Below are positions 143 through 36,394 of a stretch of DNA of 64,000 bases, piece by piece. The notes below the pieces were generated by a model. That model did no database searches. It was not told the origin of the DNA and saw only the letters and a list, made by a program, of their open reading frames with translations. Position numbers and translations under genes: made by a program. The first letter of the stretch is position 1. Each line of letters starts with the position of its first letter. Origin of the DNA: Candidatus Humicultor tengchongensis. GTDB lineage: Bacteria; Sysuimicrobiota; Sysuimicrobiia; Sysuimicrobiales; Humicultoraceae. The DNA lies in contig JAVKIA010000001.1 of the NCBI GenBank assembly GCA_031459715.1, positions 144,824 to 208,823 of the forward strand, read 5' to 3'.

Positions 143-3601
<3,459 letters not shown>

Positions 3602-16282: not shown

Positions 16283-16375
16283 CGCAGCAGGGACCCGGTG
16301 CTAGGGTAGCCGTGTCGGCGGTGCGTGCTCGGCAAGGTGGGAGGAGGTACTCCTCCGGGAGCAACCCGGCCTAAC

Positions 16376-16410
16376 TTGCGAGCCCGGCCGCCGACGCTTT
16401 TTTCTCGCGA
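16376..16410. terminator. Possible shared terminator region between convergent genes (imperfect stem enclosing a T6 run)
   Basis: 'ttgcgag...ctcgcga' inverted repeat around 'cgcttttttctc'. A separate perfect 7-bp hairpin, ggaggag-gta-ctcctcc, lies at about 16340-16356. Weak. Confidence 0.25.
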
Positions 16411-16426
16411 GTGCGGCGCGCTGCGA

Positions 16427-17707: not shown

Positions 17708-17840
17708 CGGATGTCGCAAACACACCTATCGTACGGGTGCGCAGGGGAAAGTCAACACGGCGCCCAAGAGTAATAGTACCCTTGAGCGGCCGGAGACGAC
17801 AGCACGAACAGGGAGCGGAAAGGCGAGGGGAGGGGGGCGG

Positions 17841-18710
17841 TTGCTGAAGGAGCTGCACCTGAACGCCTACGCCAAGGTGAACCTGGCTCTGGACGTGTTG
17901 GGACCCCGCGAAGACGGCTTTCACGAGATCGAGACGGTGCTGCACACCGTCGAGCTGCACGATACCATCACCCTGCGCGAACAGGAGGACGGCATCACCG
18001 TCCGCACCGACGACCCGGCGGTGCCGGACGACGCCCGGAACCTGGTGGTGCGCGCCGCGCAGGTGCTGCGGGAAACCTTCCAGGTGTCCCGCGGCGTGGA
18101 TATCGAGATCAAGAAGGGCATCCCGGTGGGTTCCGGGCTGGGCGGGGGAAGCTCGGACGCCGCCATCACCCTGCTGGGGCTCGTCCAGATGTGGAAGCTC
18201 CGGCTGAACGGACGGGGGCTGCTGTCTCTGGCCGCCACCCTGGGCTCGGACGTCCCCTTCTTCCTGGAAGGGGGAGCGGCCATCGCCCGCGGCCGGGGTG
18301 AGAGGGTCACCTGGCTGCCCCCACTGCCCACCACCTGGGTGGTGCTGGCGCGTCCACGGGTGGAGGTCTCCACCGCCTGGGCCTACCAGGTGCTGGACCT
18401 CTCCCGTGTGTGGCGCCGGCCCGACGTGGCCGCCCTGGTGGCGGCCATGCGGCGCGAGGATGTGGCCGCCGTGGGCCGGCTGATGGGGAACGTTTTCGAG
18501 GAGCTGCTGGTGCAACACCACCCGGTGGTGGGCGAGCTGAAGCAGCTGATCCTGGCGGGGGAAGCCTACGGGGCGGCACTCTCGGGCACCGGGCCCACCG
18601 TCTTTGGGCTGATGGCCAACGAAGCCGCGGCCCGTAAGACGGCCGACGATCTGCGGGCCCTGCCGGATGTGGACGTCCTGGTGAGCCGCACCTTCGCCGA
18701 GGAACGGTGA
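17841..18710 (+). CDS. ispE: 4-diphosphocytidyl-2-C-methyl-D-erythritol kinase
   Basis: 'AYAKVNLALDV', 'GIPVGSGLGGGSSDAAITL' and 'GSDVPFFL' GHMP motifs. TTG start preceded by a G-rich SD. The gene is followed by purR, as in Bacillus. Confidence 0.85.
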   Translation: MLKELHLNAYAKVNLALDVLGPREDGFHEIETVLHTVELHDTITLREQEDGITVRTDDPAVPDDARNLVVRAAQVLRETFQVSRGVDIEIKKGIPVGSGLGGGSSDAAITLLGLVQMWKLRLNGRGLLSLAATLGSDVPFFLEGGAAIARGRGERVTWLPPLPTTWVVLARPRVEVSTAWAYQVLDLSRVWRRPDVAALVAAMRREDVAAVGRLMGNVFEELLVQHHPVVGELKQLILAGEAYGAALSGTGPTVFGLMANEAAARKTADDLRALPDVDVLVSRTFAEER

Positions 18711-19459
18711 TCGACGCCCTCCTGCTTGCCGGCGGGGGCACAGCTGCTGCAGCAAACAAGGCCTTCCTGGATGTCGCGGGCCGCCCCCTGGTCTGGTACG
18801 TGGCGCGGGCGCTGGCCGAGGCTCCCTCGGTGGGCCGGATCGTGGCGGTGGGCCCGGCAGAGGACCTGCGCCGGGCCTGTGGCCCCATCCTCGCCGCCGT
18901 TGTCCCCGAAACCGGGAGCTCAGTGGTGGAGAACCTGCTGGCCGCGCTGGCGGCACTGCCGCCCGCGCCGCGGGTGCTGGCCGCGGCCGCCGACATCCCC
19001 CTGCTCAGCGCTGCGGTGGTGGAGGAGTTTCTCTCCGCCTGCGCGAAGGAGGAGGCCGACTTCTACTATCCCATCGTCCCGCAAACCGTCGTCCAGGACC
19101 GGTACCCGGGAGCTCGCAAAACCTTTGTTCGGGTGCTGGAGGGATCGTTCACCGGCGGCAGCATGTTCGTATTCAACCCGAGCGTGGTCCCGCGGGTGCG
19201 CGAGCTGCTGGATAAAATGGTGCGGGCCCGGAAGAAACCGTGGATCATGGCCGGTATCGTCGGCTGGTCCACAGTGATGAAGCTGGCCTCTGGCCGCCTG
19301 GCTATCTCAGAGGTGGAGGCCAGGCTGGGCGAGATTACGGGGCTGGTGCTGCGGGCGGTGGTGCTGCGGCGGCCGGAGCTGGCCCTGGACGTCGACCTGG
19401 AGCACCCAGAGAACCTGGAGCTGATCCGGAGGGCGCTGCAGGATTCCCCCGAGCGTTAG
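18707..19459 (+). CDS. Nucleotidyltransferase-family protein (MobA-like NTP_transf_3)
   Basis: N-terminal 'LLLAGGGTAAAANKAFLDVAGRPLVWYV' nucleotide-binding fold. ATG overlaps the ispE stop. Confidence 0.6.
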   Translation: MIDALLLAGGGTAAAANKAFLDVAGRPLVWYVARALAEAPSVGRIVAVGPAEDLRRACGPILAAVVPETGSSVVENLLAALAALPPAPRVLAAAADIPLLSAAVVEEFLSACAKEEADFYYPIVPQTVVQDRYPGARKTFVRVLEGSFTGGSMFVFNPSVVPRVRELLDKMVRARKKPWIMAGIVGWSTVMKLASGRLAISEVEARLGEITGLVLRAVVLRRPELALDVDLEHPENLELIRRALQDSPER

Positions 19460-19610
19460 GCGCATCTCCAGGGATTGGCGGGAGAAAGGCGGGCCGGGCG
19501 TGCGGGAGATGCTGGATCCGCGGGGGGTGCCGCCAGCTGCGGCAGAGGGAGGGGAACGGGCGGCGCCGGAGAGGCGACCGCGGCGGGCCAGGCTGCGGCG
19601 GGGGGAACGG

Positions 19611-20396
19611 ATGGTGGTGATCGCGCACCATCTGCTCTCTCACCCCTACCAGCTCTTTCCCCTGGCGACGTTTATGGAACTGCTGGGCGCGGCCAAGTCT
19701 ACCATCAGCGAGGATCTGGGCTTTCTACGCCAGACCTTCGACCGCTTCCGCCTGGGCAGGGTGGAGACGCTGGCCGGCGCAGCCGGCGGGGTACGCTACC
19801 TGCCCCAGATGCACCGCGAGCAGATCCGCGCCCTGGTCGAGGACCTCTGCCGCCGCCTGCGCGATCCCGCCCGGGTGCTGCCCGGAGGGTTCCTGCACGT
19901 CACCGACCTGATCAGCAGCCCGCAGTTCGCCACCCCCATCGGGCAGGCGTTCGCCACCCTGCTGGGGGGCGGGCGTCCCGACGTGGTCCTGACCATGGAG
20001 GTGAAGGGGATTCCCCTGGCGCTGGAGACCGCCCGGGCCTTCAACGTCCCCCTGGTGACCATCCGCCGCGGCGGTCGGGTGACGGAGGGGCCCGCGGTGA
20101 CGGTAAATTACGTCTCGGGCTCCTCCCGCCTGGTGGGGCAGATGACGCTGCCCCTGCGGGCCATCCCCCCCGGTGCCCGGGCGGTCTTCATTGACGACTT
20201 CCTCCGCGGCGGGGGCACGGCGCGCGGCGTGGTGGACCTGATGAAGGAATTCCGCGCCGAGCTGGTCGGGATCGGTGTCCTGGTGGAGACCGCCCTGCCC
20301 CGGGAGAAGATGGCGCAGCGCTACCTCTCGCTCATCGTGTACGAGGGGACCAGCGAGCACGGGGAGGTCCTGGTATACCCCAGCCGCCACGTCTGA
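19611..20396 (+). CDS. purR: Pur operon repressor PurR (N-terminal wHTH plus PRTase domain)
   Basis: 'IAHHLLSHPYQLFPLATFMELLGAAKSTISEDL' resembles the B. subtilis PurR N-terminus. PRTase motif 'VFIDDFLRGGGTARG'. The ATG at 19611 has an SD 'gggggaacgg'; an upstream start is possible. Confidence 0.8.
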   Translation: MVVIAHHLLSHPYQLFPLATFMELLGAAKSTISEDLGFLRQTFDRFRLGRVETLAGAAGGVRYLPQMHREQIRALVEDLCRRLRDPARVLPGGFLHVTDLISSPQFATPIGQAFATLLGGGRPDVVLTMEVKGIPLALETARAFNVPLVTIRRGGRVTEGPAVTVNYVSGSSRLVGQMTLPLRAIPPGARAVFIDDFLRGGGTARGVVDLMKEFRAELVGIGVLVETALPREKMAQRYLSLIVYEGTSEHGEVLVYPSRHV

Positions 20397-21115: not shown

Positions 21116-22287
21116 CGCGCCGCGATCTCCGGGGCGAGCCTGACCCTGGCCGCGGTACCCAGCGTGGCCAGGAGGAAGAGGAGGAAGACCGCGCTGCTGC
21201 TCAGGAACGGGGCACGGATGTCCACGGCGTAGATCATCCCCGCCCACAGCGGCCCCACGGTGCGCCCCAGGCTGTCGAAGGCCGTCTGCACGCCCATGGC
21301 CAGACCGAGCCCCTGCTCTGCCCGTTTGGACAGCAGCGAGGTGATCGCAGGTCTAATGAGCGCCAGTCCAGCCCCGATAAGCACGACGCAGGCGACGACC
21401 ACCGGTACGGAGGCGCTGGCCGCCGTGAGCGCAAAGCCGATCGCCCCCAGCACCAGGCCCGCGCAGGTGACGGCCACCTCACCCCAGTGCCGGATCAGCG
21501 GTCCCACCAGCCCGAACTGGAGGATCACCCCCGCCACCCCCAGCAGGGTGAAGGCTACGCCCACCTGTGTCGGGCTGCCTGCCAGGCGGTCGATGAAGTA
21601 GTACCCCAGCATGCTGAACATGGCCGAGCCGCCGAAGGTGGCCCCGAAGGCCAGCCAGAAGAGGATGCTGTAGGGGCTGCGTACCGCTGCCCAAACTCCG
21701 CGCCACAGCGGCCGGCGCATCCTCGTCACCCGCGATGGGGGCTCGCGCAGCAGCAGCAGGCCCACGGGCGCAGCTGCCACGCCCAGGGCGCCGGCCACCA
21801 GGAAGGGCACGGCCAGGCCCAGCGGCGCCAGCGCTCCGCCGATGGCCGGCCCAAACATGAACCCCAGGGAGAAGACGCCGCCTATGGCTCCCATGGCCGC
21901 TCCCCGGCGCTCCGGTTCTGTGAGGTCGGCGACCATGGCCTGGGAGGTGGGGAGGGCCGCGCTGGAGAGCAGGCCCCCGGCCAGACGCGCCACCAGCAGC
22001 GCCAGGTACGAGCGGGCCAGGGCCATGAGGAAGAAGGTCAGCCCGAAGCCGAGGACGCCTACCAGGAGCACCGGCTTGCGCCCCACGCGGTCAGAGACAT
22101 CGCCCCACAGCGGCGCGGTGAGGAACTGGGCCGCTGCCCACACCGTGACCAGCAGGCCCATCTGCACAGGGCTGGCGTCGACGCGGCGGGCCAGGAAGGG
22201 AAGCGTGGGGATGACGATGCCAAACCCGACCATCATGATGAACAGGGTCAGCAAGAGCAGCAGGATCTGGACGGTGGGACGGTGCAT
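21112..22287 (-). CDS. MFS transporter (DHA1-type, 12 TM)
   Basis: Internal ATG at 22287 ('MHRPTVQILLLLL...'). MFS motif 'GDVSDRVGRKPVLL'. 391 aa. Its stop shares a CTAG with the convergent SUKH gene. Confidence 0.8.
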   Translation of the reverse strand: MHRPTVQILLLLLTLFIMMVGFGIVIPTLPFLARRVDASPVQMGLLVTVWAAAQFLTAPLWGDVSDRVGRKPVLLVGVLGFGLTFFLMALARSYLALLVARLAGGLLSSAALPTSQAMVADLTEPERRGAAMGAIGGVFSLGFMFGPAIGGALAPLGLAVPFLVAGALGVAAAPVGLLLLREPPSRVTRMRRPLWRGVWAAVRSPYSILFWLAFGATFGGSAMFSMLGYYFIDRLAGSPTQVGVAFTLLGVAGVILQFGLVGPLIRHWGEVAVTCAGLVLGAIGFALTAASASVPVVVACVVLIGAGLALIRPAITSLLSKRAEQGLGLAMGVQTAFDSLGRTVGPLWAGMIYAVDIRAPFLSSSAVFLLFLLATLGTAARVRLAPEIAAR

Positions 22288-22489
22288 GCTCGGGATCCGG
22301 CGCTCACCCCTTCGGCACGCGGGGTGCCTGCTTCCTGCTTCGTGTGTCGCAGCCGTTCTCTCCCTCCGCGCTGCGCCCGATGGCGCAGGGCGCGCCAACC
22401 ATCTACAATGCGGAAGGTTCCACGCTCCGGGTGAATCCGTCGCGCCCTGCCAGGAGACCCCCGAAGGACGCGACGTTCGGAGGTTGCCC

Positions 22490-23848
22490 ATGAAGGCGCT
22501 GTTGACGAAGAGTTGTCTGCTCCTTTCCCTGGTCGTGTTCGCCTCAGCCCCTGCGCTCTGGGCGCAGACGGCGCCGCCGGCTCTTGAAGTGCGGCCCATC
22601 ACCCTGAGCCAGGCCCTGCTCACGGCACTGCAGAACAACCTGGCGCTGCGGATCGCCCTCTTCGAGGTGCAGGTCACGCAGGCGCAACTGGCGCAGGCCC
22701 TGGCGGCAAGAAGCGGCGCCCTGACCGGCACCCTGGGCTACACCCGCACTAGTGAGCGTGTCACCAGCTTCGTCATCCCGGCCAACGCCTTCGGACCGGG
22801 GCTGCCTCCTGTGGAGACGACCATCACCTTTCCGGTCTCCCCCAACGTCTACGTGGTCAACCTGGGCTACCAGTACCCCGTCTACAGCGGCGGACGGCTG
22901 GAGGCGCAGATCGCCCTGGCCCGGGCGGGGGTGAAGGGAGCGGAGGCGGCGCTGGAGCGGACCAAGCAGGAGGTAGCTTTGCAGACCAAGCTCGCCTACT
23001 TCCAGGTGCTGGTGGCGCAGGCGGGGCTGCAGGTGGCACAGCAGAACGTGGCGCAGGCGGAGGAGACCCTGCGCATCGCCCAGGCCCGCGTGCGGGCGGG
23101 GACCTCGCCCCGCTTCGACGAGATCCAGGCGGAGGTCAACCTGGCTAACGCCCGCCAGGGGCTGCTTCGTGCCCGCAACGGCGTTGCCGTGGCCACACAG
23201 GGGCTGGCCGCGATACTGGCCCTGCCGCTGGATGCGGCCCTCCACCCGCAGGAGACCATGGAGGTGGTCCCGGTGACGGCCTCGCTAGCCGACCTGGTGG
23301 CACGCGGCCTGCGGGAGCGGCCGGAGCTGGCCGAGCATCAGGCGAAGGTGGAAGCGGCGGAGGCGGCGCTGGAGCTGGCTCGGACCGGAGGGCGGCCGGT
23401 GGTGGGATTGAGCGGGGGACTCTCCCTGGACGGCCTGGGCACCGGCGCCGTGGCCCTGGGGTGGAGCATCGGTCTGGCCGCCACTTTTCCCCTCTTCGAT
23501 GGTGGCATCACCGCGGCGAAGATTCGAGAGGCCGAACTGCGACTGGAACAGCTCAAGGTGGTGGGGGCACAGCTTCGCCAGTCCATCGAGCTGCAGGTGC
23601 GGCAGGGGGTCCTCAACCTGGGAGCGGCGGCAGAGGAGGTGAGCACGGCCAGGGCTGCCATCGAGCAGGCGCGCGAGGCGCTGCGCATCGCCCAGGTCCG
23701 CTTCCGCGAGGGAGTGGGCACCAACCTGGAGGTGATCTCGGCCCAGGCCGCCCTGGCCCAGGCCGAGGGGGCGAGGGTGCAGGCGCTGTTCTCCTACAAC
23801 ACCGCCCGCGCTCAGCTGGAGCGGGCGGTGGGCGGGCCGGTGCAGTAG
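22490..23848 (+). CDS. TolC-family outer-membrane efflux protein
   Basis: Signal peptide 'MKALLTKSCLLLSLVVFASAPALWAQ', then two TolC repeats ('LSQALLTALQNNLALRIA...', 'LADLVARGLRERPELAE...'). SD ggagg 7 nt upstream. Confidence 0.8.
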   Translation: MKALLTKSCLLLSLVVFASAPALWAQTAPPALEVRPITLSQALLTALQNNLALRIALFEVQVTQAQLAQALAARSGALTGTLGYTRTSERVTSFVIPANAFGPGLPPVETTITFPVSPNVYVVNLGYQYPVYSGGRLEAQIALARAGVKGAEAALERTKQEVALQTKLAYFQVLVAQAGLQVAQQNVAQAEETLRIAQARVRAGTSPRFDEIQAEVNLANARQGLLRARNGVAVATQGLAAILALPLDAALHPQETMEVVPVTASLADLVARGLRERPELAEHQAKVEAAEAALELARTGGRPVVGLSGGLSLDGLGTGAVALGWSIGLAATFPLFDGGITAAKIREAELRLEQLKVVGAQLRQSIELQVRQGVLNLGAAAEEVSTARAAIEQAREALRIAQVRFREGVGTNLEVISAQAALAQAEGARVQALFSYNTARAQLERAVGGPVQ

Positions 23849-23916: not shown

Positions 23917-25896
23917 ATGAAGACGCCACTGTGGGTGCCTTCCGATGCGGTGAAGCGCCGGGCGAACATCACCAGGTTCATGGACATGGTCAACGGGCGG
24001 TGGGGCCTGGAGATCCAGTCGTACCCCGAGCTCTACGCCTGGTCCGTTGAGCACATCCCGGATTTCTGGGCCGCCATGTGGGACTTTGGGGGGATCCTCG
24101 CCTCCCGCGGGTACCGCCAGGTGGTGGATGACCTCACCAAATTCCCCGGGGCCAGGTGGTTCGACGGCGCCCGGCTGAACTTTGCGGAGAACCTCCTCAG
24201 GTACCGCGACGATCATCCCGCGCTGGTGTTCAGGGGAGAGACGCGGGCATCGGCGCAGCTGACGTACTCCGAGCTGTACGACGCCGTGGCCCGCCTGGCG
24301 GCATCCCTGCGCGAGCTGGGGATTCGCCCCGGCGACCGGGTGGCCGCCTACATGCCCAACCTCATCGAGACGGCCGTGGCCATGCTGGCGGCCACCAGCC
24401 TTGGGGCCACCTGGGCTTCCTGCGCCACCGACCTGGGTCCGCAGGCGGCGCTGGACCGCCTCGGCCAGGTGCACCCCAGAGTGCTCTTTACCTCCGACGG
24501 CTACTACTACAAGGGCACCCGCTTCGACACCCGGAGCAACGCGGCTGAGGTCGCCCGAGGCATCCCCTCCCTGGACAAGGTCATCGTCGTGCCCTACACG
24601 AGGGTGAAGCCCGACATCAGTGTCATCCCCAAGGCGGTGCTCTACGAGGACTTCCTGGTGCGGGGGGAAGGGCTGAAGATGGACTTCGCCCACCTGCCGT
24701 TCGATCATCCGGGCTTCATCATGTTCTCCTCCGGGACCACCGGGAAGCCTAAGTGCATGGTGCAGGGAGCGGGCGGCGTCCTGCTCAACCACCTGAAGGA
24801 GCTCCTCCTGCACACTGACCTAAAGCGGGAGGACAGCATCCTCTACATCACCACCTGTAGCTGGATGATGTGGAACTGGCTGCTCAGCAGCCTGGCCGTG
24901 GGTGCCACGGTGGTCCTATACGACGGCCATCCCGCCTACCCCGAGCCCGGTGCCATGTGGAAGCTGGTGCAGGACCAGGGCATCACCATCTTCGGGACCA
25001 GCGCCACCTACATCAACTTCCTCAGGCGGGAGGGGGTCAGGCCCGGCCGGGAATACGACCTGTCCACGCTGCGGGAGATCTCCCAGACCGGCTCCGCCCT
25101 CTCCGCCCAGGGCTTCGAGTACGTCTACCGGGAGATCAAGGCAGACCTGCACTTCAACTCCATTTCGGGGGGGACCGACATCAACGGCTGCTTTGCCGCC
25201 GGCAGCCCCATTCAGCCCGTGTACGCCGGCGAGCTGCAGGGCCCCGCCCTGGCCATGAAGGTCAAGGCCTATGACGAGGAGGGCCGGGAGGTGTGGGATC
25301 GGCAGGGCGAGCTGGTATGCGAGGCCCCCTCCCCTTCCATGCCCCTGTACTTCTGGAACGACCCCGATGGGGAGAAGTACCGCAACGCCTACTTCACCTT
25401 CTACCCTCAGAAGAACGTCTGGCGGCACGGCGACTTCATCGTCATGCACAGCGACACGGGGGGCATCACCTTTCACGGCCGATCCGACGCCACCCTGAAG
25501 CCGGCGGGGGTGCGCATCGGCACTGCGGAGATCTACAGCGTCGTGGAGAGCCTGGAGGAGGTGGCGGACAGTCTGGCCGTGGGACAGGACTGGCGCGGCG
25601 ACCAGCGCATCCTCCTGTTCGTGAAGCTGGCCCCGGGCTACACCCTGACCGAGGAGCTGAAGGGCAGGATCGCGACCGCGCTGCGCACCCGGGCCTCGCC
25701 GCGGCACGTTCCGGCGATGATCCTGGAGACCCCGGAAGTGCCCTACACCTTCAACATGAAGAAGGTGGAGAGCGCTGTGGCCAACATCATCAACGGCAGA
25801 CCCGTGGTCAACCGGGACGCCCTGGTCAACCCCCAGGCCCTGGACTACTTCGAGCGCATCCTCCCCGAGCTTGGGCGCGACTCCTTCGGGCGCTGA
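23917..25896 (+). CDS. Acetoacetate-CoA ligase (acetoacetyl-CoA synthetase)
   Basis: '[31 protein letters not shown]' N-terminus, the AMP-binding motif '[11 protein letters not shown]' and the AACS-specific C-terminus. ATG 23917 with SD ggtgggagg. Confidence 0.85.
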
Positions 25897-25997
25897 GGTC
25901 CCGCGCCGCCCCGACTGCCGCCACCCGCCTGGAAGCGCAGGGTCGGACCTGGCTGGATGAGGCAGTCTGAGGCGGTGTTTTGAGGCAGTGCGGCGCG

Positions 25998-26025
25998 TTG
26001 ACAGCCGGCGGACGAGCCGTATAAT
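25998..26025 (+). promoter_or_regulatory. Near-consensus sigma-70 promoter (TTGACA-16-TATAAT) driving tRNA-fMet
   Basis: TTGACA at 25998-26003, TATAAT at 26020-26025. The mature tRNA 5' end is 13 nt downstream. Confidence 0.6.
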
Positions 26026-26037
26026 TAACGGTGCTGA

Positions 26038-26114
<77 letters not shown>

Positions 26115-26331
26115 CCGGTTTTGAAGGGGTTCCGTCGGCTGCCAGCCGCGGGACCCATATCAGTTTTTATCGGCGGTAGTCCTCGGAAGTATCTCCCTGC
26201 TCAACGGGCGCAGGGAAGGGTGCTTCCTGCCCGAGAGGCCCCCCGCTAGCCTTCTGGAACTCGGTTGGATCGAGGAGTTTGAGCCCCCGAGTAACTGTGC
26301 TAGCATCGACGATAGATTAGAGGGAGCGGAA

Positions 26332-27063
26332 GTGCTGGAAGCGCGCGTGGACAGGCTCGAGGTAGCTCTCCAGCGGCTGGCTGAGGCCCAGGCCGAGACG
26401 CAGGCAGAACTTCGCGCGCTGGCCGAGGCCCAGCGGCGGACGGAGCAGCGGTTGGAGGCACTGACCGCGCGGGTGGACGATCTGGCCGAGGCCCAGCGGC
26501 GGACGGAGCAGCGGTTGGAGGCGCTGACCGCGCGGGTGGACACCCTGGCCGTGCGGGTGGACACCCTGGCCGCGCAACTTAGCGAACTGGTGGTCCAGGT
26601 GTCCCGTCTTGCAGGCATTGTAGGAGACGTGCGCGGCAGGGTGCTCGAGCTCGACTACCGGGAGAAGGCGCACGCCTATTTCCTGAGGATCCTGCGGGCG
26701 ATCCACCTGGTGCCCCGGGCGGAGCTGGCCGCGATGGCCGAGGACGCCGAGGGGCGCGCCCTTCTTTCGCTGGACGAACACACGGATCTCTTGCAGGCCG
26801 ATGTGGTCATCCGCGGGCGGCGCCGAGATGGCGACGAAGAGTGCTACCTCGTCGCCGAGGTCTCCGCGGTGGTGGACGCACGCGACGTGGAACGGGCGGC
26901 TCGCCGGGCACGGCTGCTCCAGCGGATGGTCGCCATGCCGGCGCTGGCGGCTATGGCCGGGGAGCGCGCCACGGCCGATGCCAGCCGGGAAGCCGCCACC
27001 GCAGGGGTCTGGCTGGTGATCGACGGACGGGCCTACCCGCCAGGGAGCCTTCCGGAGAGCTGA
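26332..27063 (+). CDS. Hypothetical coiled-coil protein with tandem 21-aa repeats and an uncharacterised C-terminal domain
   Basis: GTG start with SD agggag. The N-terminal 100 aa are heptad-like and rich in A/E/R/L/Q. The C-terminal ~110 aa ('DLLQADVVIRGRRRDGDEECYLVAEVSAVVDARD') has a D...E pattern, possibly nuclease-like. No family could be assigned. Confidence 0.5.
   Translation: MLEARVDRLEVALQRLAEAQAETQAELRALAEAQRRTEQRLEALTARVDDLAEAQRRTEQRLEALTARVDTLAVRVDTLAAQLSELVVQVSRLAGIVGDVRGRVLELDYREKAHAYFLRILRAIHLVPRAELAAMAEDAEGRALLSLDEHTDLLQADVVIRGRRRDGDEECYLVAEVSAVVDARDVERAARRARLLQRMVAMPALAAMAGERATADASREAATAGVWLVIDGRAYPPGSLPES
26419..26544 (+). repeat. Perfect-to-near-perfect 63-bp tandem direct repeat (2 copies plus a partial third) inside the coiled-coil ORF
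   Basis: Unit 'ctggccgaggcccagcggcggacggagcagcggttggaggc(a/g)ctgaccgcgcgggtggac...' at 26419-26481 and 26482-26544, encoding 'LAEAQRRTEQRLEALTARVDD/T'. Confidence 0.8.
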
Positions 27064-27093
27064 TTGCCCAAGAGACGTTCGGGGGCTTCTTCA

Positions 27094-27122
27094 GGGGCTG
27101 CGGCGTAAAGGCCAGCAGCCCC
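27094..27122 (+). terminator. GC-rich hairpin (8-bp stem ggggctgc/gcagcccc) 30 nt after the coiled-coil gene stop; no U-tract
   Basis: Inverted repeat 27094-27101 / 27115-27122. Could be a weak terminator or RNA-stability element. Confidence 0.3.
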
Positions 27123-27186
27123 TGACTATGGTCGCCGCCGGGGCTGCCCTTGCGCCTGGCTCGGTGCCTTGCTAGCATCCTGCTGT

Positions 27187-27204
27187 AGACCGACGCGTCG
27201 GTCT
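27187..27204. promoter_or_regulatory. Perfect 18-bp palindrome AGACCGACGCGTCGGTCT just upstream of the men operon
   Basis: Self-complementary over all 18 nt. Lies 5 nt 5' of the first possible menF ATG (27210) and 36 nt 5' of the SD-supported ATG (27240). Candidate operator for a dimeric regulator, or an RNA hairpin. Confidence 0.35.
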
Positions 27205-27239
27205 ATCCCATGACCCCGAACCAGGACGGTGGAAGAAGC

Positions 27240-28736
27240 ATGGCAACCACGCCGGCCGGCACACACCGTGTCGACATGGCCGTTGCCCCGCTGATTCAGG
27301 GGCTCAGAGCCGCGTCGACGGTGGGCCGGCGGGTCGCCGCGCGTCAGGGGCGTCCGGTTCTGGTCTGGACCTCGGCCGCCGTTCCGGCGGTCGATCCCAT
27401 CGCTCTCTTCGAACGCGCCGCCGGGTTCGGGGCGGCACGGCTGCTGTGGGCGCGCCCGGCCGATGGGGAGAGTCTCGTAGGGATTGGGGCGGCCTGGGAG
27501 GCCACGGCGGAAGGCCCGGCGCGGTTGGGCGCGGTGGGGGATGCATGGCGCCGCTGCCTGGCTGAGGCAGTAGGTGTAGGCGATGGAGCCGGTCCGGCGG
27601 CGATGGGCGGCTTCGCCTTCGCTCCCACCGTCGATCCCCGGTCTCCGTGGCGCACGTTCCCGGCCGGCTGGCTGCTGGTACCGTGGCTGGTGGTTCGCAC
27701 AACCGGCGCAGGCTCTCAGGCGGTGCTCAGCACGCTGGTGCCCCCCGACGGCGACGGCACTTCCCCGTACAACGATGGCAGCTCCCTGCACGACGCCACG
27801 CACCTGGCCGCGTTGCTGGATCCGCAGGACGGGCCGGGGCGTCCGCAGCCTGTGCAGCCCGCCTCCTACCGCGTGCAGAACACGGTCACGACGGCTCCGC
27901 CGGTCGCGGAAATCCCGGCGACTTCACGCTGGAAGGCGCTGGTCGTCGAGGCCGCGGCGGCCGTGCGCGGCGGCGCGCTTCGCAAGGTGGTACTTGCGCG
28001 CGCCGTGACGGTGGACGGGGTGACGACCGGCCTGGCCACGGCGCTGCACCGCCTGCGCACCGCCTACCCGGGGTGCGCGCTGTTTGCGGTGGCCCGCGGC
28101 GACCTCTGCTTCCTGGGTGCGACCCCCGAGCGCCTGTTGCGGGTGCGAAACGGTGTGGTGAGCACCGGAGCCCTGGCCGGGTCGGCTCCCCGGGGCACGG
28201 CGCCGGAAGAGGACGAGTACCTGGGCCAGGTGCTGCTCGCCAGCTCCAAAGACCGGCTGGAGCACGCGCTGGTCGTGGAAGCGGTCCGCGACGCGATGAC
28301 CGCGGCGTGTGACGACGTGGTGGCCCCGCCCACCCCGGTCCTGCTGCGCATGCCCAACGTACAGCACCTCTATACGCCGCTGCGGGGGCGCCTGCGCGCC
28401 CCGCTGGAGATCCTGGAGCTGGCCAGCCGCCTGCATCCCACCCCTGCTGTGGGCGGCGTCCCCCAGGAGGCGGCCCTGAAGTGGATCGCCCGGCACGAGG
28501 GGTTCGAGCGTGGGTGGTACGCGGGCGTCGTAGGCTGGCTGGATGGGGCCGGCGACGGCGAGCTGTCGGTGGCCATCCGGTGTGCACTGCTGCGCGGCCG
28601 GCGCGCCACGTTGTTCGCCGGGTGCGGCATCGTGGGCGACTCCGATCCGGAGGCAGAGTACGCGGAGTCATGCCTGAAGCTGCGCCCCCTGGCCGAGGCG
28701 CTGGACGCGCCCGGGGCGCTCCATGGCTGCCGCTGA
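27240..28736 (+). CDS. menF: Isochorismate synthase (menaquinone-specific)
   Basis: Chorismate-binding C-terminal domain ('LHPTPAVGGVP...WYAGVVGWLDGAGDGELSVAIRCAL...AGCGIVGDSDPEAEYAE'). The ATG at 27240 has an SD ggtgga; the alternative ATG at 27210 has no SD. Confidence 0.8.
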   Translation: MATTPAGTHRVDMAVAPLIQGLRAASTVGRRVAARQGRPVLVWTSAAVPAVDPIALFERAAGFGAARLLWARPADGESLVGIGAAWEATAEGPARLGAVGDAWRRCLAEAVGVGDGAGPAAMGGFAFAPTVDPRSPWRTFPAGWLLVPWLVVRTTGAGSQAVLSTLVPPDGDGTSPYNDGSSLHDATHLAALLDPQDGPGRPQPVQPASYRVQNTVTTAPPVAEIPATSRWKALVVEAAAAVRGGALRKVVLARAVTVDGVTTGLATALHRLRTAYPGCALFAVARGDLCFLGATPERLLRVRNGVVSTGALAGSAPRGTAPEEDEYLGQVLLASSKDRLEHALVVEAVRDAMTAACDDVVAPPTPVLLRMPNVQHLYTPLRGRLRAPLEILELASRLHPTPAVGGVPQEAALKWIARHEGFERGWYAGVVGWLDGAGDGELSVAIRCALLRGRRATLFAGCGIVGDSDPEAEYAESCLKLRPLAEALDAPGALHGCR

Positions 28737-30546
28737 GCCTGGCCGCGCACCGCTAGCGCCCGAGAACGCCACCTATGCGTTCGTCGGCGCCCTGGTCGAC
28801 GAGCTGGTCCGGGCGGGTGTGCGTCACTTCTGCCTGTGCCCGGGATCCCGCTCGACACCGCTGGCCATGACGGCAGTCCGGCAGGGGGGCCTGAAGGTCT
28901 GGATGCACGTGGACGAACGCGCGGCCGCTTACTTCGCGCTGGGCCTGGCCAAGGCCTTGCGCTCGCCAGTGGCAGTGGTATCCACCTCGGGAACCGCGGC
29001 CGCCAACTTCCTCCCGGCGGTGATCGAGGCCCGGTTCGGCCGGGTACCGCTGCTGGTGCTTACCGCGGACCGGCCGCACGAGCTACGCGACGCCGGCGCC
29101 AACCAGACCATCGATCAGCTGCGGCTCTTCGGGGTGCAGGTGAAGTGGTTCGCGGAGGTTGCCCCGCCGCTGGCTACGGAGGCGATGCTGCGGTACGCGC
29201 GCCAGCTGGCAGCCCAGGCCACCTTCCACGCGGTTGAGGCGCCCGCAGGACCCGTGCACCTCAACTTCCCCTTCCGCGAGCCGCTAGTTCCCGTACCCGC
29301 ACCCAACGAGCTGCCCCCCACGGACGATCGCGCCGGACCTGCCTGGGAGGGCCGTGCGGAGGGGCAGCCTTACACGGTCGCGCTGCACGCCGTCCGGGCC
29401 CCGGATGCGGCGGTTGCGCGGGCGCTGGCTGGCATCGTGGGCGCCGCGCGGCGCGGCCTGATCGTCTGCGGGCCGCAGGACGATCCGGCCTTCCCCCAGG
29501 CGCTGACACGGCTGGCGGATGTGGTTCGCTTCCCGGTGCTGGCCGATCCGCTGTCCGGGGTGCGGTGCGGCCCCCACGACCGCAGCCTGGTGGTGGATGC
29601 CTATGATCTCGTCCTGCGCGCCGATCGCGCTGCGGCCACCCTCGAGCCCGACCTGGTCCTGCGCTTCGGCGCCATGCCGGCGTCGCGGCCGCTGCTGCAG
29701 TACCTGCAGCGCCACAGCCGGGCGCGGCAGGTCGTGGCCGACGGTGCCCGGTGGAGCGACCCCCTGCGCGTGGCCGCGCAGATCCTGGCAGCCGACCCAC
29801 GGCTGGTGTGCGAGGCCCTGACGGCGGCGCTGGCCGGTCACCGGCCCGCGCCGGCGCAGGAGGAGTGGACCGACCGCTGGCTGGAGCTGAGCTGCTCCGC
29901 CCGCGCCGCTGCCGCCCGCCGCCTGCTGGAGATCACCGAGCCGTTTGAGGGCAGGGTGTTCGCCGAGCTGGGGGCGCTGCTGCCCGATGGTGCGCTGCTG
30001 GTGGTGGGCAACAGCATGCCGGTGCGCGACCTGGACACCTTCCTGCCGTCGGTGCCCACGCGCCTGCGCGTGCTCGGCAACCGCGGCGCCAGCGGCATCG
30101 ACGGCCTGCTCTCCACCGCCCTGGGCGCCGCTGCGGCCGCCGCCGGCCCGGTGGTGGCCGTCCTGGGCGACCTGGCGTTCTACCACGACATGAACGGCCT
30201 GCTGGCGGCCAGGCTGCACGGGCTGGCGGCCACCATCGTGCTGCTCAACAACAACGGCGGCGGGATCTTCAACTTCATGCCGCAGGCAGCGTACCCGGCC
30301 TACTTCGAGGCGCTCTTTGGGGTGCCCCACGGGCTGGAGTTCCGCCATGCGGCCGATCTGTACGGCGCCACCTACGCGGTTTTCGAAGGATGGAGCGCCT
30401 TTGGCCAACAGGTGCGCGCGGGCCTGGCCCGGTCGGGGCTGACCATCGTGGAGATTCAGACCGATCGGGGGCGCAATGTCCGTCTGCACCAGGAGATCTG
30501 GGCCAGCGCCGCCGAGGCGCTCGGCGCCGGCCTGTCCACGAGGTGA
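28723..30546 (+). CDS. menD: 2-succinyl-5-enolpyruvyl-6-hydroxy-3-cyclohexene-1-carboxylate synthase (ThDP-dependent)
   Basis: ThDP-enzyme N-terminus '[30 protein letters not shown]' and ThDP motif '[12 protein letters not shown]...NNNGGGIF'. Confidence 0.85.
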
Positions 30547-30550
30547 GAGG

Positions 30551-31369
30551 ATGCCCGTGAACTGGATGAAAGTACGTGAGTACACAGATATCGTCTACGA
30601 ACAGGCTGATGGGATGGCCAAGATCACCATCAACCGGCCTGAGGTCCGCAACGCCTTCCGCCCGCAGACCATCGTCGAGCTGATCGACGCCTTCACCCAC
30701 GCCCGCGAGGACCCAGCCGTGGGGGTCATCCTGTTCACCGGAGCGGGGACCGAGGCCTTCTGCTCGGGCGGGGACCAGCGCGTGCGCGGAGACGCCGGCT
30801 ACCTGGACGAGACGGGAATCCCACGCCTCAATGTGCTGGACCTGCAGCGGCTGCTCCGGGTGCTTCCCAAACCCGTGATCGCGCTGGTCGCGGGCTACGC
30901 CATCGGCGGCGGCAACGTGCTGGCCACCGTCTGCGACCTCACCATCGCCGCCGAGAACGCTGTTTTCGGCCAGACCGGGCCAAAGGTCGGCTCGTTCGAC
31001 GCGGGCTACGGGTCCACTTACCTGGCCCGCATCGTGGGTCACAAGAAGGCCCGGGAGATCTGGTACCTATGTCGCCAGTACACGGCGCAGCAGGCGCTGG
31101 AGATGGGGCTGGTCAACGCCGTGGTGCCGCTGGAACAGTTGGAGGAGGAGGGCATCCGGTGGGCCCGGGAAATCCTTGAGAAGAGCCCGCTGGCCATCAG
31201 GCTGCTCAAGGCGGCGTTCAACGCCGACACGGACGGACTGGCCGGCATCCAGCAGCTGGGCGGCGACGCCACGCTGCTGTACTACCTGACCGATGAGGCA
31301 AAGGAAGGGCGCGACGCCTTTCTCCAGAAGCGCCGACCCGACTTCTCCAGGTTCCCCCGCTATCCGTGA
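30551..31369 (+). CDS. menB: 1,4-dihydroxy-2-naphthoyl-CoA synthase (crotonase fold)
   Basis: '[23 protein letters not shown]', 'FCSGGDQ', '[19 protein letters not shown]' and '[14 protein letters not shown]'. Confidence 0.9.
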
Positions 31370-32280
31370 CTGCCCGCCCTTCCGTGGCTCCGGAGCGCCG
31401 GCCCGTCTCCCGCCGGCGCGCCTGGGTGCATGCGGCGCGTATCCCCACGCTGCCGGCGGCCGTGGCCCCGGTGCTGGTGGGCAGCGGCGCCGCAGCCGCT
31501 GCAGGCGGGTTTGACGCGCCGGCAGCGCTGGGGGCGCTGGTGGTGGCCCTGGCCATCCAGATCGGCACCAACCTCCACAACGATGCCGCGGACTTCCTGC
31601 GTGGCACCGACGCGACACACCGACTGGGTCCGCCCCGCGTCACCCAGGCCGGCTGGCTTGCGGCGCACGAAGTGCTGGCCGGCGCCTACGCATGTTTCGG
31701 CCTGGCGGCGCTGGTGGGGCTTCTCTTCGTCTGGCGGTGGGGGTGGCCGGTGCTGGCGGCGGGGGGACTTTCCATCCTGGCCGCCCTAGCCTACACCGCT
31801 GGGCCCTGGCCGCTCGGCTACCACGGCCTGGGCGAAGTGTTCGTCTTCCTCTTCTTCGGCGTCGTGGCCACCGCCGGAACCGCCTTCGTTCAGTTGGGAC
31901 GGATCAGCCCGGCCGCGCTGGCGGCCTCGGTCCCGGTGGGCCTGCTGTGCGCAGCGATCCTGGTCGCCAACAACCTGCGCGATGTGGCCAGCGACGCCCT
32001 GGCGGGCAAGCGCACCCTGGCGGTGCGCCTGGGTCCGGATCGGACCCGTGTGCTCTACGAGGTTTTGCTGGCCGCCGCCGTGGCCGCACCGCCGGTTCTG
32101 CGGCTGGCCGGGCTGGCCGGGCGGTGGTTCTGGCTGCCCTGGCTGGCCCTGCCCGAGTTCCTGGCGCTGGGGCACGCCGCGTGGTGGCACCATGAGGCGC
32201 CCGCGCTGGTGGCCGTCCTGAAGCGCACGGCCCGGCTGCACCTGGTTTACGGGGCGCTTTTGGGCGCCGGCCTGCTGTGA
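31366..32280 (+). CDS. menA: 1,4-dihydroxy-2-naphthoate polyprenyltransferase (UbiA family)
   Basis: About 8 TM helices with UbiA Asp-rich motifs '[12 protein letters not shown]' and 'NNLRDVASD'. Confidence 0.8.
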
Positions 32281-34508
32281 GGCAGACCGACGCGGGCCAC
32301 GCGGCCCTGCACACCCCCGACTGGCTCGCCTACCGCGCCGCCGTCTCCCCAAGCCACCTGGCGCTGGTTGCCGGCGCCGAGCGGCTGACGTTCACCGACC
32401 TCGACCGCCGGGCTGGGGCTCTGGCCCGACGCCTGAGGCATGCGGGTGTGTCAGCCGGCGACCGCGTGGCGGTCCTCCTGCGCAACGGCCCGGCCTACGT
32501 CGAGGTGACCTTCGGCCTGGCGCGCGCAGGCGCCGTGATGGTACCGCTGAACACGCGCCTGGCCCCGCCGGAGATTGCCTGGCAGCTGACGGACAGCAGC
32601 GCCCGGTGGCTGGTGTGCGAGGAGCGTACGGCCGCACAGGTACCCGGGATCTCCCCGGACCTCTGCCTGGTGGTCGTAGAGGAGCTGGCCCGGGAGCCCG
32701 AGGGCGAGGTGACGCTGGACGACCGGTGGCACCTCTCCCGCGTGCAGGGCATCGTTTACACCTCGGCCACGACGGGCCGCCCCAAGGGGGCACAGCTCAC
32801 CTTCGGCAACCACTGGTGGAATGCCGCGGGCTCGGCGTTGCTCCTGGGTGCGCACCGCGGGGACGCCTGGCTGGCGGTGCTGCCCTTCTTCCATGTCGGC
32901 GGTCTGGCTCTGCTGTGGCGCGGTGTGCTGTACGCCACTCCCCTGGTCGTGCACGATGCCTTCGACCCGGAGGCCGCCAACCGGGCCGTGGACGCAGGGG
33001 AGGTGACCCTGGTCTCGCTGGTGGCTCCCATGCTCCAGCGCATGCTGGACGCCCGCCGGGATCGGCCGTTCCCTCCGACGCTGCGCGCTGTGCTGCTGGG
33101 AGGCGGGCCGACGGGCCGCGACCTCCTCGACCGGTGCGTGGCCCTGGGCGTGCCCGCAGCCCCCACCTACGGGCTGACGGAAGCAGCCTCGCAGGTGGCG
33201 ACGCTGCCGCCGTGGGAGTTCCCGCGGAAGGTCGGTGCATCCGGCCGGCCGCTGTTCCCGGTGGAGCTGTGCATCGATGCACCGCCCGGCGAGGTGGGGG
33301 AGATCCTGGTGCGCGGCCCCACGGTCATGGCTGGCTACTGGAACCGGCCCGAGGAGACCGCGCGGGTGCTGCGCAGTGGATGGCTGCATACCGGCGATCT
33401 GGGCTACGTCGATCCCGACGGTGATCTGTTCGTCGTGGACCGCCGCGATGACCTCATCATCACCGGCGGTGAAAACGTGTACCCCTCTGAAGTGGAGGAG
33501 GCGTTGCGGGCCCACCCCGCCGTGGCCGATGCCGGTGTCTTCGGGATGCCGGACCCCCTGTGGGGCCAGGCGGTCGCCGGGGCCGTGGTCGTCCGCCCAG
33601 GGGCCAGCGTGGACGCCGCTACGCTGGAAGCGTTCTGCGCGGCACGCCTGGCCCGCTACAAGGTGCCGCGGCGCGTCTGGTTCGTCACGGAGCTCCCGCG
33701 GTCGGCCGGGGGGAAGGTGATGCGCCGCGAGCTCCAGGCGCGTTTCGTGCCTTCGGTTCCCGGAAAGCCCACCGGCCCGCGCAGCGTACCGGGCGTCGCC
33801 CTGCCGGCCGCGGTGCCGCGGTGGTGGGTGCGCGACGCCTTCCACGCCATCGCCGGACGCTACGACCTCCTCAACCACCTGCTCAGCGGCGGCCTGCACC
33901 TGGTCTGGAAGCGTGCCGCTGTGCGGGCCGCTGCTCTGGGCCCCGGCGGCCGGGCGGTGGACGTGTGCTGCGGGACGGGGGACCTGCTGGTGGGGCTTGC
34001 CCGCATCGTCGGCCCCGGCGGCCGGGTGCTCGGTGTCGACTTTGCCGCGGGCATGGTGGCCGCAGCGGCCGCCCGCCTGGCACGCCGGCGGCTGGCCGGC
34101 GCTACCGTGCTGCTGGGAGATGCCGAGGCCCTGCCGCTAGGCGACGCGACGGTGGACGCGGCGACCATCGCCTTCGGCCTGCGCAACGTGGCGGACCCTG
34201 CCCGGGCGCTGCGCGAGATGCACCGGGTGCTGCGCCCCGGAGGGCGGTTGGTGGTGCTGGAGTTCGGGCAGCCTCGCCCGTCGTGGTTCCGAGCGCTCTA
34301 CGACCTCTATTCGCGCACGGTGATCCCGCGCTGCGGCGGCTGGCTCTCCGGGCGGCACGATGCCTACCGCTACCTGCACGACTCCATCCGCCAGTGGCCC
34401 GATCCGGAGCAGCTCAGTGACCTCATCCGCGAAGCAGGGTTTGCGCAGGTGCGCTATCACCTCCTGACGCGCGGCATCTCCGTGCTGCACCTGGGCACCA
34501 AGCCCTGA
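32277..34508 (+). CDS. Fusion protein: o-succinylbenzoate-CoA ligase (MenE, aa 1-~495) plus demethylmenaquinone methyltransferase (MenG/UbiE, aa ~518-743)
   Basis: Single uninterrupted frame of 743 aa. AMP-binding motifs ('YTSATTGRPKGA', 'GWLHTGDLGY', '...GKVMRRELQARF'), a ~20-aa Pro-rich linker, then the UbiE signature 'DAFHAIAGRYDLLNHLLSGGLHLVWKR' with SAM motif 'VDVCCGTGDL' and 'LRPGGRLVVLEF'. Confidence 0.8.
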   Translation: MRQTDAGHAALHTPDWLAYRAAVSPSHLALVAGAERLTFTDLDRRAGALARRLRHAGVSAGDRVAVLLRNGPAYVEVTFGLARAGAVMVPLNTRLAPPEIAWQLTDSSARWLVCEERTAAQVPGISPDLCLVVVEELAREPEGEVTLDDRWHLSRVQGIVYTSATTGRPKGAQLTFGNHWWNAAGSALLLGAHRGDAWLAVLPFFHVGGLALLWRGVLYATPLVVHDAFDPEAANRAVDAGEVTLVSLVAPMLQRMLDARRDRPFPPTLRAVLLGGGPTGRDLLDRCVALGVPAAPTYGLTEAASQVATLPPWEFPRKVGASGRPLFPVELCIDAPPGEVGEILVRGPTVMAGYWNRPEETARVLRSGWLHTGDLGYVDPDGDLFVVDRRDDLIITGGENVYPSEVEEALRAHPAVADAGVFGMPDPLWGQAVAGAVVVRPGASVDAATLEAFCAARLARYKVPRRVWFVTELPRSAGGKVMRRELQARFVPSVPGKPTGPRSVPGVALPAAVPRWWVRDAFHAIAGRYDLLNHLLSGGLHLVWKRAAVRAAALGPGGRAVDVCCGTGDLLVGLARIVGPGGRVLGVDFAAGMVAAAAARLARRRLAGATVLLGDAEALPLGDATVDAATIAFGLRNVADPARALREMHRVLRPGGRLVVLEFGQPRPSWFRALYDLYSRTVIPRCGGWLSGRHDAYRYLHDSIRQWPDPEQLSDLIREAGFAQVRYHLLTRGISVLHLGTKP

Positions 34509-34587: not shown

Positions 34588-34617
34588 TTGACAGCTCCCG
34601 CCTCTCCTTGCTATCGT
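34588..34617 (+). promoter_or_regulatory. Candidate promoter (TTGACA-18-TATCGT) for the cimA leader
   Basis: -35 at 34588-34593, -10 at 34612-34617. About 210 nt upstream of cimA. Confidence 0.35.
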
Positions 34618-34637: not shown

Positions 34638-34806
34638 CCGCGGCCGGCAGTGGCAGCCGCGGCGAGGAAGCGCGCCCCAGAATCCACGGCTCCCACAAGG
34701 GCCGGTCGGTTCACGCGGCGCGGGCGGCCGGAGATGGCCGCCACTCCGTCAGGAGCAAAGCCTGAGGGGCAGGTTCCTCCCGGAATCGGTCTCTCGGGCT
34801 TTTGTC
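34638..34806 (+). promoter_or_regulatory. Structured 5' leader of cimA: two perfect 7-bp GC hairpins plus a terminator-like element directly before the SD
   Basis: Hairpins ccgcggc/gccgcgg (34638-34662) and ggcggcc/ggccgcc (34723-34742). cccg-N12-cggg followed by CUUUUGUC (34779-34806), then SD ggggagg (34811-34817). Candidate attenuator or riboregulator. No T-box or known riboswitch consensus was recognised. Confidence 0.3.
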
Positions 34807-34825
34807 ATCCGGGGAGGATGCGACC

Positions 34826-36390
<1,565 letters not shown>

Positions 36391-36394
<4 letters not shown>

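Follow-up and report, generated by a model that had tools for sequence, protein, structure and literature searches.

The menaquinone (men) gene cluster of Candidatus Humicultor tengchongensis closes with a gene that joins two enzymes of the pathway in one polypeptide. The DNA analysed here, referred to as the window, is a stretch of 64,000 nucleotides from contig JAVKIA010000001.1 (GenBank assembly GCA_031459715.1, forward strand, positions 144,824 to 208,823), numbered from its first letter, and the gene in question, menE::menG, is an open reading frame (ORF) at 32277..34508 on the plus strand. This frame begins with GTG and encodes 743 amino acids followed by a stop codon, with zero internal stops, and its G+C content at the three codon positions (0.78/0.54/0.88) is typical for genes of the window. 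The original prediction, drawn from the letters of the sequence, held that the 743-residue chain contains a complete o-succinylbenzoate-CoA ligase (MenE) and a complete demethylmenaquinone methyltransferase (MenG/UbiE), and this is borne out by hidden Markov models (HMMs), by matches to solved structures, by an AlphaFold model and by at least 28 further protein clusters. On the protein, Pfam places AMP-binding at residues 19-355 (PF00501, profile 3-384 of 384), AMP-binding_C at 405-480 (PF13193, profile 1-76 of 76) and Ubie_methyltran at 518-742 (PF01209, profile 9-233 of 233; 218.2 bits against a cut-off of 20.1), so that the two enzyme domains are both complete and neither is degenerate. The peptides given for the end of the ligase ('...GKVMRRELQARF') and the start of the methyltransferase ('VRDAFHAIAGRYDLLNHLLS') lie where they had been placed, with Val518 encoded by the GTG at 33828, and the short Pro-rich linker between them is likewise as described, the ORF having neither a stop codon nor a frameshift between the domains.

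The AlphaFold model of the fusion, built from 30 sequences, consists of two folded bodies (mean predicted local distance difference test score, pLDDT, 81.9; predicted template modelling score, pTM, 0.64), with pLDDT below 50 only at residues 1-9, 165-167 and 493-515. The N-terminal body would be an o-succinylbenzoate-CoA ligase of the ANL superfamily. It scores 374.4 bits against the menE equivalog model TIGR01923 (cut-off 330.15), covering profile positions 1-442 of 442, its gene stands directly behind menF-menD-menB-menA as befits a menE, and it has both subdomains together with the ANL core motifs, namely the P-loop, TYGxTE, GD, the A8 hinge Arg/Asp and the A10 Lys. Residues T162-T165, P169, G171, H206, T297-E302, D374, R389 and K480 are invariant in the 30-sequence alignment. 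MenE of Bacillus subtilis (5BUQ) aligns with the window protein at E = 3.4e-107, where residues 12-487 of the query pair with residues 6-480 of the 494-residue chain. When the MenE half of the model was compared with solved structures by Foldseek, the nearest was the thioester-forming state 5X8F (TM 0.90, root-mean-square deviation 2.5 Å), while the adenylation-state structures 5GTD and 5BUS superpose on the model at about 10 Å. This difference arises because the C-terminal subdomain of ANL enzymes swings widely between the adenylation and thioester-forming states.

The C-terminal body would be a class-I demethylmenaquinone C-methyltransferase (MenG/UbiE) dependent on S-adenosylmethionine (SAM). 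The family model TIGR01934 (MenG_MenH_UbiE) is matched over its full length (profile 1-223 of 223) with 240.7 bits against a cut-off of 158.35, the UbiE model NF001244 is passed with 223.2 bits against 216, and yeast Coq5 (4OBW) aligns end to end with this half at E = 7.9e-27. In that alignment the class-I SAM-binding elements fall into register, comprising motif I, the acidic post-I residue and motifs II and III; in the 30 sequences conservation reaches at least 90% for DVCCGTGD (562-569), VDFA (D588), FGLRN (633-637) and LRPGGR (652-657), which are lacking only in P0028, a protein with MenE alone. It is only the men-operon context that points to demethylmenaquinone as the presumed substrate of this module, and both activities of the fusion are predicted from its sequence.

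Between the two bodies lies a linker of about 25 residues, rich in Pro, Ala and Gly, over which pLDDT drops to 26-47 (residues 493-515), and which is accordingly modelled as flexible or disordered. Whereas the whole window protein is 88% identical to its homologue P0001, linker identity between the two is roughly 40%. Measured from the A10 Lys to a conserved Trp of MenG in 29 fused proteins, the spacer has 15 to 79 residues, with a median of 31; A/P/G/S make up 61% of it, and it is always in frame. Such a floppy tether would leave room for the MenE C-terminal subdomain to rotate, and is what one would expect behind an ANL C-terminal subdomain if the added enzyme is to leave its swing unhindered. 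The coordinates of the modules, of the linker and of the surrounding features are collected in Table 1.

Table 1. Features of the menE::menG fusion gene and its surroundings; positions are those of the window.
Feature	Position	Strand	Remarks
menF (isochorismate synthase), first operon gene	27210..28736	+	TIGR00543 306.8 bits, cut-off 224.75; 14-nt overlap with menD
menD (2-succinyl-5-enolpyruvyl-6-hydroxy-3-cyclohexene-1-carboxylate, SEPHCHC, synthase)	28723..30546	+	TIGR00173 467.9 bits, cut-off 244.2
menB (1,4-dihydroxy-2-naphthoyl-CoA, DHNA-CoA, synthase)	30476..31369	+	NF005637 494.7 bits, cut-off 380; profile alignment from residue 26
menA (1,4-dihydroxy-2-naphthoate, DHNA, polyprenyltransferase)	31366..32280	+	NF004751 305.4 bits, cut-off 264
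MenE module, residues ~10-490	32304..33746	+	P-loop YTSATTGRPKG at residues 161-171, nt 32757-32789; A10 catalytic Lys480 at nt 33714-33716
Inter-domain linker, residues ~491-514, VPSVPGKPTGPRSVPGVALPAAVP	33747..33818	+	disordered in model, fast-evolving
MenG/UbiE module, residues ~515-743	33819..34505	+	SAM-binding motif DVCCGTGD at residues 562-569, nt 33960-33983
In-frame GTG, Val518	33828..33830	+	judged an ordinary Val codon
Promoter-like site for citramalate synthase gene	34588..34617	+	10/12 consensus positions plus extended TG; mean of 0.2 such sites in shuffled sequence

The fusion is not peculiar to this organism. When 5.8 billion protein clusters were searched, with the family counted as clusters at 90% identity, the same two-domain architecture came up in at least 28 other clusters (P0001-P0027 and P0030; 53-88% identical, 717-807 aa), plus the partial P0029, which answers the proposal that related genomes be searched for it. 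These clusters derive from NCBI, JGI, ENA and Logan assemblies of independent projects, and those that are named in their source are called 'MAG: o-succinylbenzoate--CoA ligase [Armatimonadota bacterium]'. The nearest relative, the genomic locus L087 (GCA_900175145.1), is 88% identical and has the same operon, the same acetoacetate-CoA ligase gene upstream and the same 129-nt spacer between the domains. In an exhaustive library of representatives at 50% identity, the whole fused family collapses into the single entry P0001, which alone among the best 150 matches (at least 377 bits) covers both halves; nonribosomal peptide synthetase (NRPS) megasynthetases crowd these 150. The MenE-MenG architecture thus appears confined to one family among matches of at least about 377 bits, the level below which weaker independent fusions would be hidden by NRPS. 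Genomes were also scanned for the motif pair [ST]GGEN[VI]YP[SAT] and DVCCGT[GA]D, and the matches listed, dominated by unrelated acyl-CoA ligases, include one fused locus, L019 (Ca. Nitrosymbiomonas sp.). An apparent fusion at L069 (Alteromonadaceae), spanning residues 20-665 of the query, proved to be a chaining artefact of tblastn, the ORF there encoding a 555-aa acyl-CoA synthetase.

How such a fusion may come about is illustrated by relatives in which the two genes are separate. At L001/L002 (GCA_031459175.1 and GCA_031459555.1; MenE 75% identical) and at L086 (GCA_052387355.1), all from sister Armatimonadota MAGs, orthologous menE and menG genes occupy the same places in the operon as in the window, with flanking synteny, but here they form two ORFs in different frames, the ATG of menG overlapping the TGA of menE (ATGA); in L001 a Shine-Dalgarno (SD) sequence, GGGGAGGG, stands upstream of this ATG. 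The split-type MenG P0160 is 81% identical, and the extra N-terminal segment of the split MenG (...DLGAPPLVRRTWVRDAFH) shares homology with the 3' half of the linker in the fused form. Four fused loci have 129, 129, 243 and 87 nt between the A10 motif and the MenG motif WVRDAFH, each a multiple of 3. In two split loci this interval is 245 and 140 nt, both of them 2 modulo 3, and it is 243 nt in the fused L003 as against 245 nt in its split sister locus L001, a net difference of 2 nt. A third state is found at L085 (GCA_964615245.1, 6001-7500), which has menE only, with flanks that match those of the fused L088 (GCA_031082185.1, 6001-8190); tblastn detects no remnant of menG at the L085 locus, where either menG was lost or moved, or the organism stops at demethylmenaquinone.

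Fused and unfused proteins interleave in a neighbour-joining (NJ) tree built from the MenE domains of 108 sequences. Over 60 bootstrap replicates, Fitch parsimony requires 8-13 changes between the two states (median 10), with at least 8 in 60 of 60, and the clade that unites the window protein, P0001-P0004 and the split P0028 is recovered in every one of the 60. We conclude from these sequence comparisons that this group has, by all appearances, passed repeatedly between the fused and split states; which way a given lineage went is something that we infer. The distances of 0 as against 2 modulo 3, together with the eight or more changes on the tree, point to recurrent frame-merging of overlapping neighbours. 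The starting state would be an adjacent, translationally coupled menE and menG with overlapping stop and start (ATGA). In L001 the open menG frame reaches back 196 codons from the conserved Trp, as expected in DNA of about 72% G+C. With that frame open so far ahead of the menG start, the ORFs can be merged by a small indel in the tail of MenE. This C-terminal tail is dispensable, and a net shift of the frame by 1 or 2 nt within it would join the two genes, with the old MenE tail and the old MenG N-terminal extension becoming the linker. The resulting chain would guarantee 1:1 co-synthesis of the two enzymes and remove the need for re-initiation, whatever selective benefit this may bring, and the two modules would most likely act as independent catalysts.

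Our interpretation, which we hold at roughly 85% probability, is that the window encodes a genuine bifunctional MenE-MenG protein, arisen by a frame-merge of overlapping neighbours, with two likely independent modules on a flexible tether. That close relatives (L001/L002, L086) have truly separate overlapping genes, which differ from the fused form by frame alone, raises the question of whether a spurious 1-2-nt indel in the homopolymer-rich, high-GC linker has joined two separate genes during sequencing or assembly. Such an artefact is very unlikely, close to negligible, because the architecture recurs in frame across independent projects and L087 has the same operon and spacer length. The in-frame clusters, at least 28 besides the window, show many linker lengths, all multiples of 3; the spacers of L087/P0001 and P0002 are exactly as long as that of the window, at 129 nt or 36 aa, although the proteins have diverged by about 12%; and the window has no ATG/SD/ATGA junction of the split-locus type. 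It is unlikely, to a lesser degree, that one ORF yields two products, a free MenG being released by internal initiation at GTG 33828 or another in-frame start, or by cleavage of the linker after translation. Being disordered in the model, the linker would be accessible to proteases, split relatives use SD-led coupled starts, and the G-rich stretch before GTG 33828 pairs with the canonical anti-SD sequence at -9.6 kcal/mol. The original prediction had proposed independent initiation of MenG at precisely this codon, behind 'ggtggtgg', and this part of it is not supported. No nucleotide separates the paired stretch from the GTG (0-nt spacing), and among 1364 internal start-like codons in genes of the window about 8.7% score as well (4.0% with the 4-10-nt spacing that is lacking at GTG 33828). 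Moreover, 'ggtggtgg' merely encodes R-W-W (codons CGG-TGG-TGG), which is R-S-W (CGG-TCG-TGG) in the nearest relative. Val518 itself is conserved across the UbiE family, but its equivalent codon is GTC in L087, L001 and L088 and ATC in L019, with GTG in L003 and L086, and in the split loci menG starts about 20-30 codons upstream of the Val518 position. This codon variation in orthologous loci, along with the 0-nt spacing, rules out GTG 33828 as a conserved internal start.

The C-terminal module might instead be a UbiE-family paralogue with a different role, whether acting on some other substrate such as another quinone or modifying or regulating MenE. Family models cannot tell MenG from UbiE activity, and the model of a methyl-plastoquinone enzyme, MpqE, gives 231 bits. 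That score falls well short of the cut-off of 335, however, while those of TIGR01934 and NF001244 are passed; menG lies in the men operon and is translationally coupled to it in the split relatives, no second UbiE-type gene occurs within the window, and the residues held in common with Coq5 are conserved throughout, which leaves this proposal only a slim chance. Several points weigh against the bifunctional, frame-merged protein that we favour. The narrower MenE equivalog model NF002966 is missed, with 510.5 bits against a cut-off of 556, and processing by proteolysis or internal initiation into separate proteins is compatible with the sequence evidence. The trees are single-domain NJ trees rather than a species tree, and some of the 'unfused' database entries in them may have an adjacent menG or be truncated; the position of P0028 inside the window clade is supported in 29 of 60 replicates, and either fusion or fission may have occurred there.

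The fusion had been described as the last gene of a menF-menD-menB-menA cluster, and each of the four upstream genes indeed passes the cut-off of its NCBIfam equivalog model (Table 1). Their spacing is tight throughout. The menA gene has 4-nt GTGA stop/start overlaps at both of its ends, with menB and with the fusion. In its longest form the menB ORF shares 71 nt with menD; the true start of menB is probably the ATG at nt 30551, since the HMM alignment begins at residue 26, where this ATG is preceded by GAGGTGAGAGG and by the stop codon of menD. The arrangement menF-menD-menB-menA-menE::menG is thus predicted to be a translationally coupled operon that the fusion closes. On its 3' side no intrinsic terminator was found behind the stop codon of the fusion, and the promoter-like site that precedes the citramalate synthase gene (34802-36394) would mark the boundary of the operon. 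On the 5' side, in the stretch that separates the men operon from the acetoacetate-CoA ligase gene, stands a perfect sigma-70 consensus promoter, TTGACA-16-TATAAT (12/12), at 25998-26025; it is rejected as the men promoter, a tRNA-Met (CAT) gene following directly at 26038-26114. Then comes an ORF of 243 aa (26332-27063), coding-like in its codon-position GC, for which Pfam and NCBIfam give zero matches; its product has coiled-coil-like repeats in tandem (AEAQRRTEQRLEALTARVD twice). It stands where L001, L003, L085 and L088 have a TetR-family regulator upstream of menF; no such regulator is found in the window, and tblastn of 25800-27300 was negative. The equivalent region of L087 is a gap of 1.5 kb without a gene call, of which only the first ~280 nt align to the window DNA.

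Farther upstream, the gene order at 12988-20396 is like that of the yabE-ksgA-ispE-purR region of Bacillus, comprising genes for a G5/3D-domain protein, an rRNA adenine dimethylase, an aminotransferase, a LytR_cpsA_psr protein, a GHMP kinase, a MobA-like NTP transferase and a PurR-type regulator. The window also encodes a protein with a 'Germane' (sporulation/germination) domain at 3068-3601 and a TolC-family outer-membrane protein at 21842-23848, and this mix of sporulation/germination-type and outer-membrane genes fits diderm Terrabacteria such as Armatimonadota.

Two further genes of the pathway, menC and menH, had been reported missing from the cluster, and this extends to the whole window. 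Among the 50 genes predicted in the 64 kb from codon-position GC, all of which were scanned with domain profiles, none carries an MR_MLE (menC), alpha/beta-hydrolase (menH) or 4HBT thioesterase domain or a second UbiE-type domain. A wider hunt for standalone ubiE/menG, menC and menH genes had also been suggested; carried out within the 64-kb window, it returned none. A MenH-like alpha/beta-hydrolase gene lies between menD and menB in the more distant L085, L086 and L088, while the clusters of the sub-clade to which the window belongs (window, L087, L001 and L003) are without one, and menC is absent from every men cluster examined. MenH is reported to be often lacking in bacteria with the classical pathway (PMC6189191).

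The MenE-MenG fusion is real, recurrent, phylogenetically narrow and under-annotated in databases. Both of its enzymes are textbook enzymes, so there is no new chemistry here, and the new element is the domain architecture; no description of a MenE-MenG/UbiE fusion was found in the open-access literature searched. As public records name these proteins of ~740 aa only 'o-succinylbenzoate--CoA ligase', menG will be wrongly scored as missing in genome-based pathway reconstructions for these Armatimonadota. The clade further offers a natural series (fused, split with ATGA overlap, menG absent) of how coupled genes in high-GC genomes may merge and separate by frame changes of 1-2 nt. Because MenE acts in mid-pathway and the methylation by MenG/UbiE is the last step of menaquinone (vitamin K2) synthesis, the fusion joins non-consecutive steps, as the original prediction had pointed out, and the recurrence of this link is a testable hint of physical association among Men enzymes. 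One could go further and read the recurrent MenE-MenG linkage as a 'Rosetta-stone' signal of one physical assembly, in which MenE would be tethered to a membrane-peripheral methyltransferase near MenA, so that the fusion would reflect a selectively favoured menaquinone metabolon more than a neutral merge. We regard this extension as doubtful; if true, it would place late soluble steps at the membrane. Such an association would be of interest because MenE and MenG are both pursued as antibacterial targets (for example PMC6653581; bioRxiv 10.64898/2026.02.10.702511). The fusion is also a ready-made bifunctional part for engineering of the menaquinone pathway.

Compared with the enzymes from which its modules are known, the window protein differs chiefly in how they are connected. 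MenE of B. subtilis (5BUQ/5BUS/5GTD/5X8F) has the same fold, length, motifs and men-operon context at 38% identity, but it is a stand-alone enzyme that ends about 10 residues past the A10 lysine, whereas the window protein runs on into the linker and a second enzyme. Likewise, the UbiE/MenG/Coq5 enzymes (PF01209, TIGR01934; 4OBW, Escherichia coli UbiE and B. subtilis MenH/MenG) agree with the MenG module in the full-length profile match, the SAM motif and the end-to-end Coq5 alignment, yet those known are separate proteins, about 230-260 aa long (in yeast, with the transit peptide, about 310 aa), while the N-terminus of the window MenG is tied covalently to MenE. ANL adenylation and SAM methyltransferase domains are also united in one chain in NRPS modules such as pyochelin synthetase 7EMY (Foldseek, 815 columns, rank 43). 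These modules carry in addition carrier and condensation/cyclisation domains and work on one tethered substrate, unlike the two modules of the window protein, which would act on different free substrates; Pfam finds no PP-binding or Condensation domain in the window protein at E <= 0.01, and its best matches are stand-alone acyl-CoA ligases.

Within the menaquinone pathway itself, other MenE fusions occur among public metagenome proteins: MenE with a C-terminal alpha/beta-hydrolase (P0093, P0130, P0162), MR_MLE/MenC with MenE (P0260, 1029 aa) and a tandem MenE (P0208, 1030 aa). No description of the MenE-hydrolase and MenC-MenE fusions was found in the literature either. As in the window protein, MenE is joined in P0093, P0130, P0162 and P0260 to another men-type enzyme, but the partner there is a MenH-like hydrolase or MenC (adjacent step), not a methyltransferase. 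Taken together, these sequences suggest that the MenE C-terminus tolerates an appended domain and that MenE commonly merges with a neighbouring men gene. Multi-enzyme fusions of the menaquinone/phylloquinone pathway are otherwise represented by PHYLLO of plants and algae, which is a MenF-MenD-MenC-MenH fusion (PMC6189191), and by bacterial MenY-MenI fusions (PMC4746308), neither of which contains MenE or MenG. PHYLLO joins four consecutive early steps. The window protein, by contrast, has only AMP-binding and UbiE-type domains, leaves menF and menD as separate genes, and joins two steps that do not follow one another.

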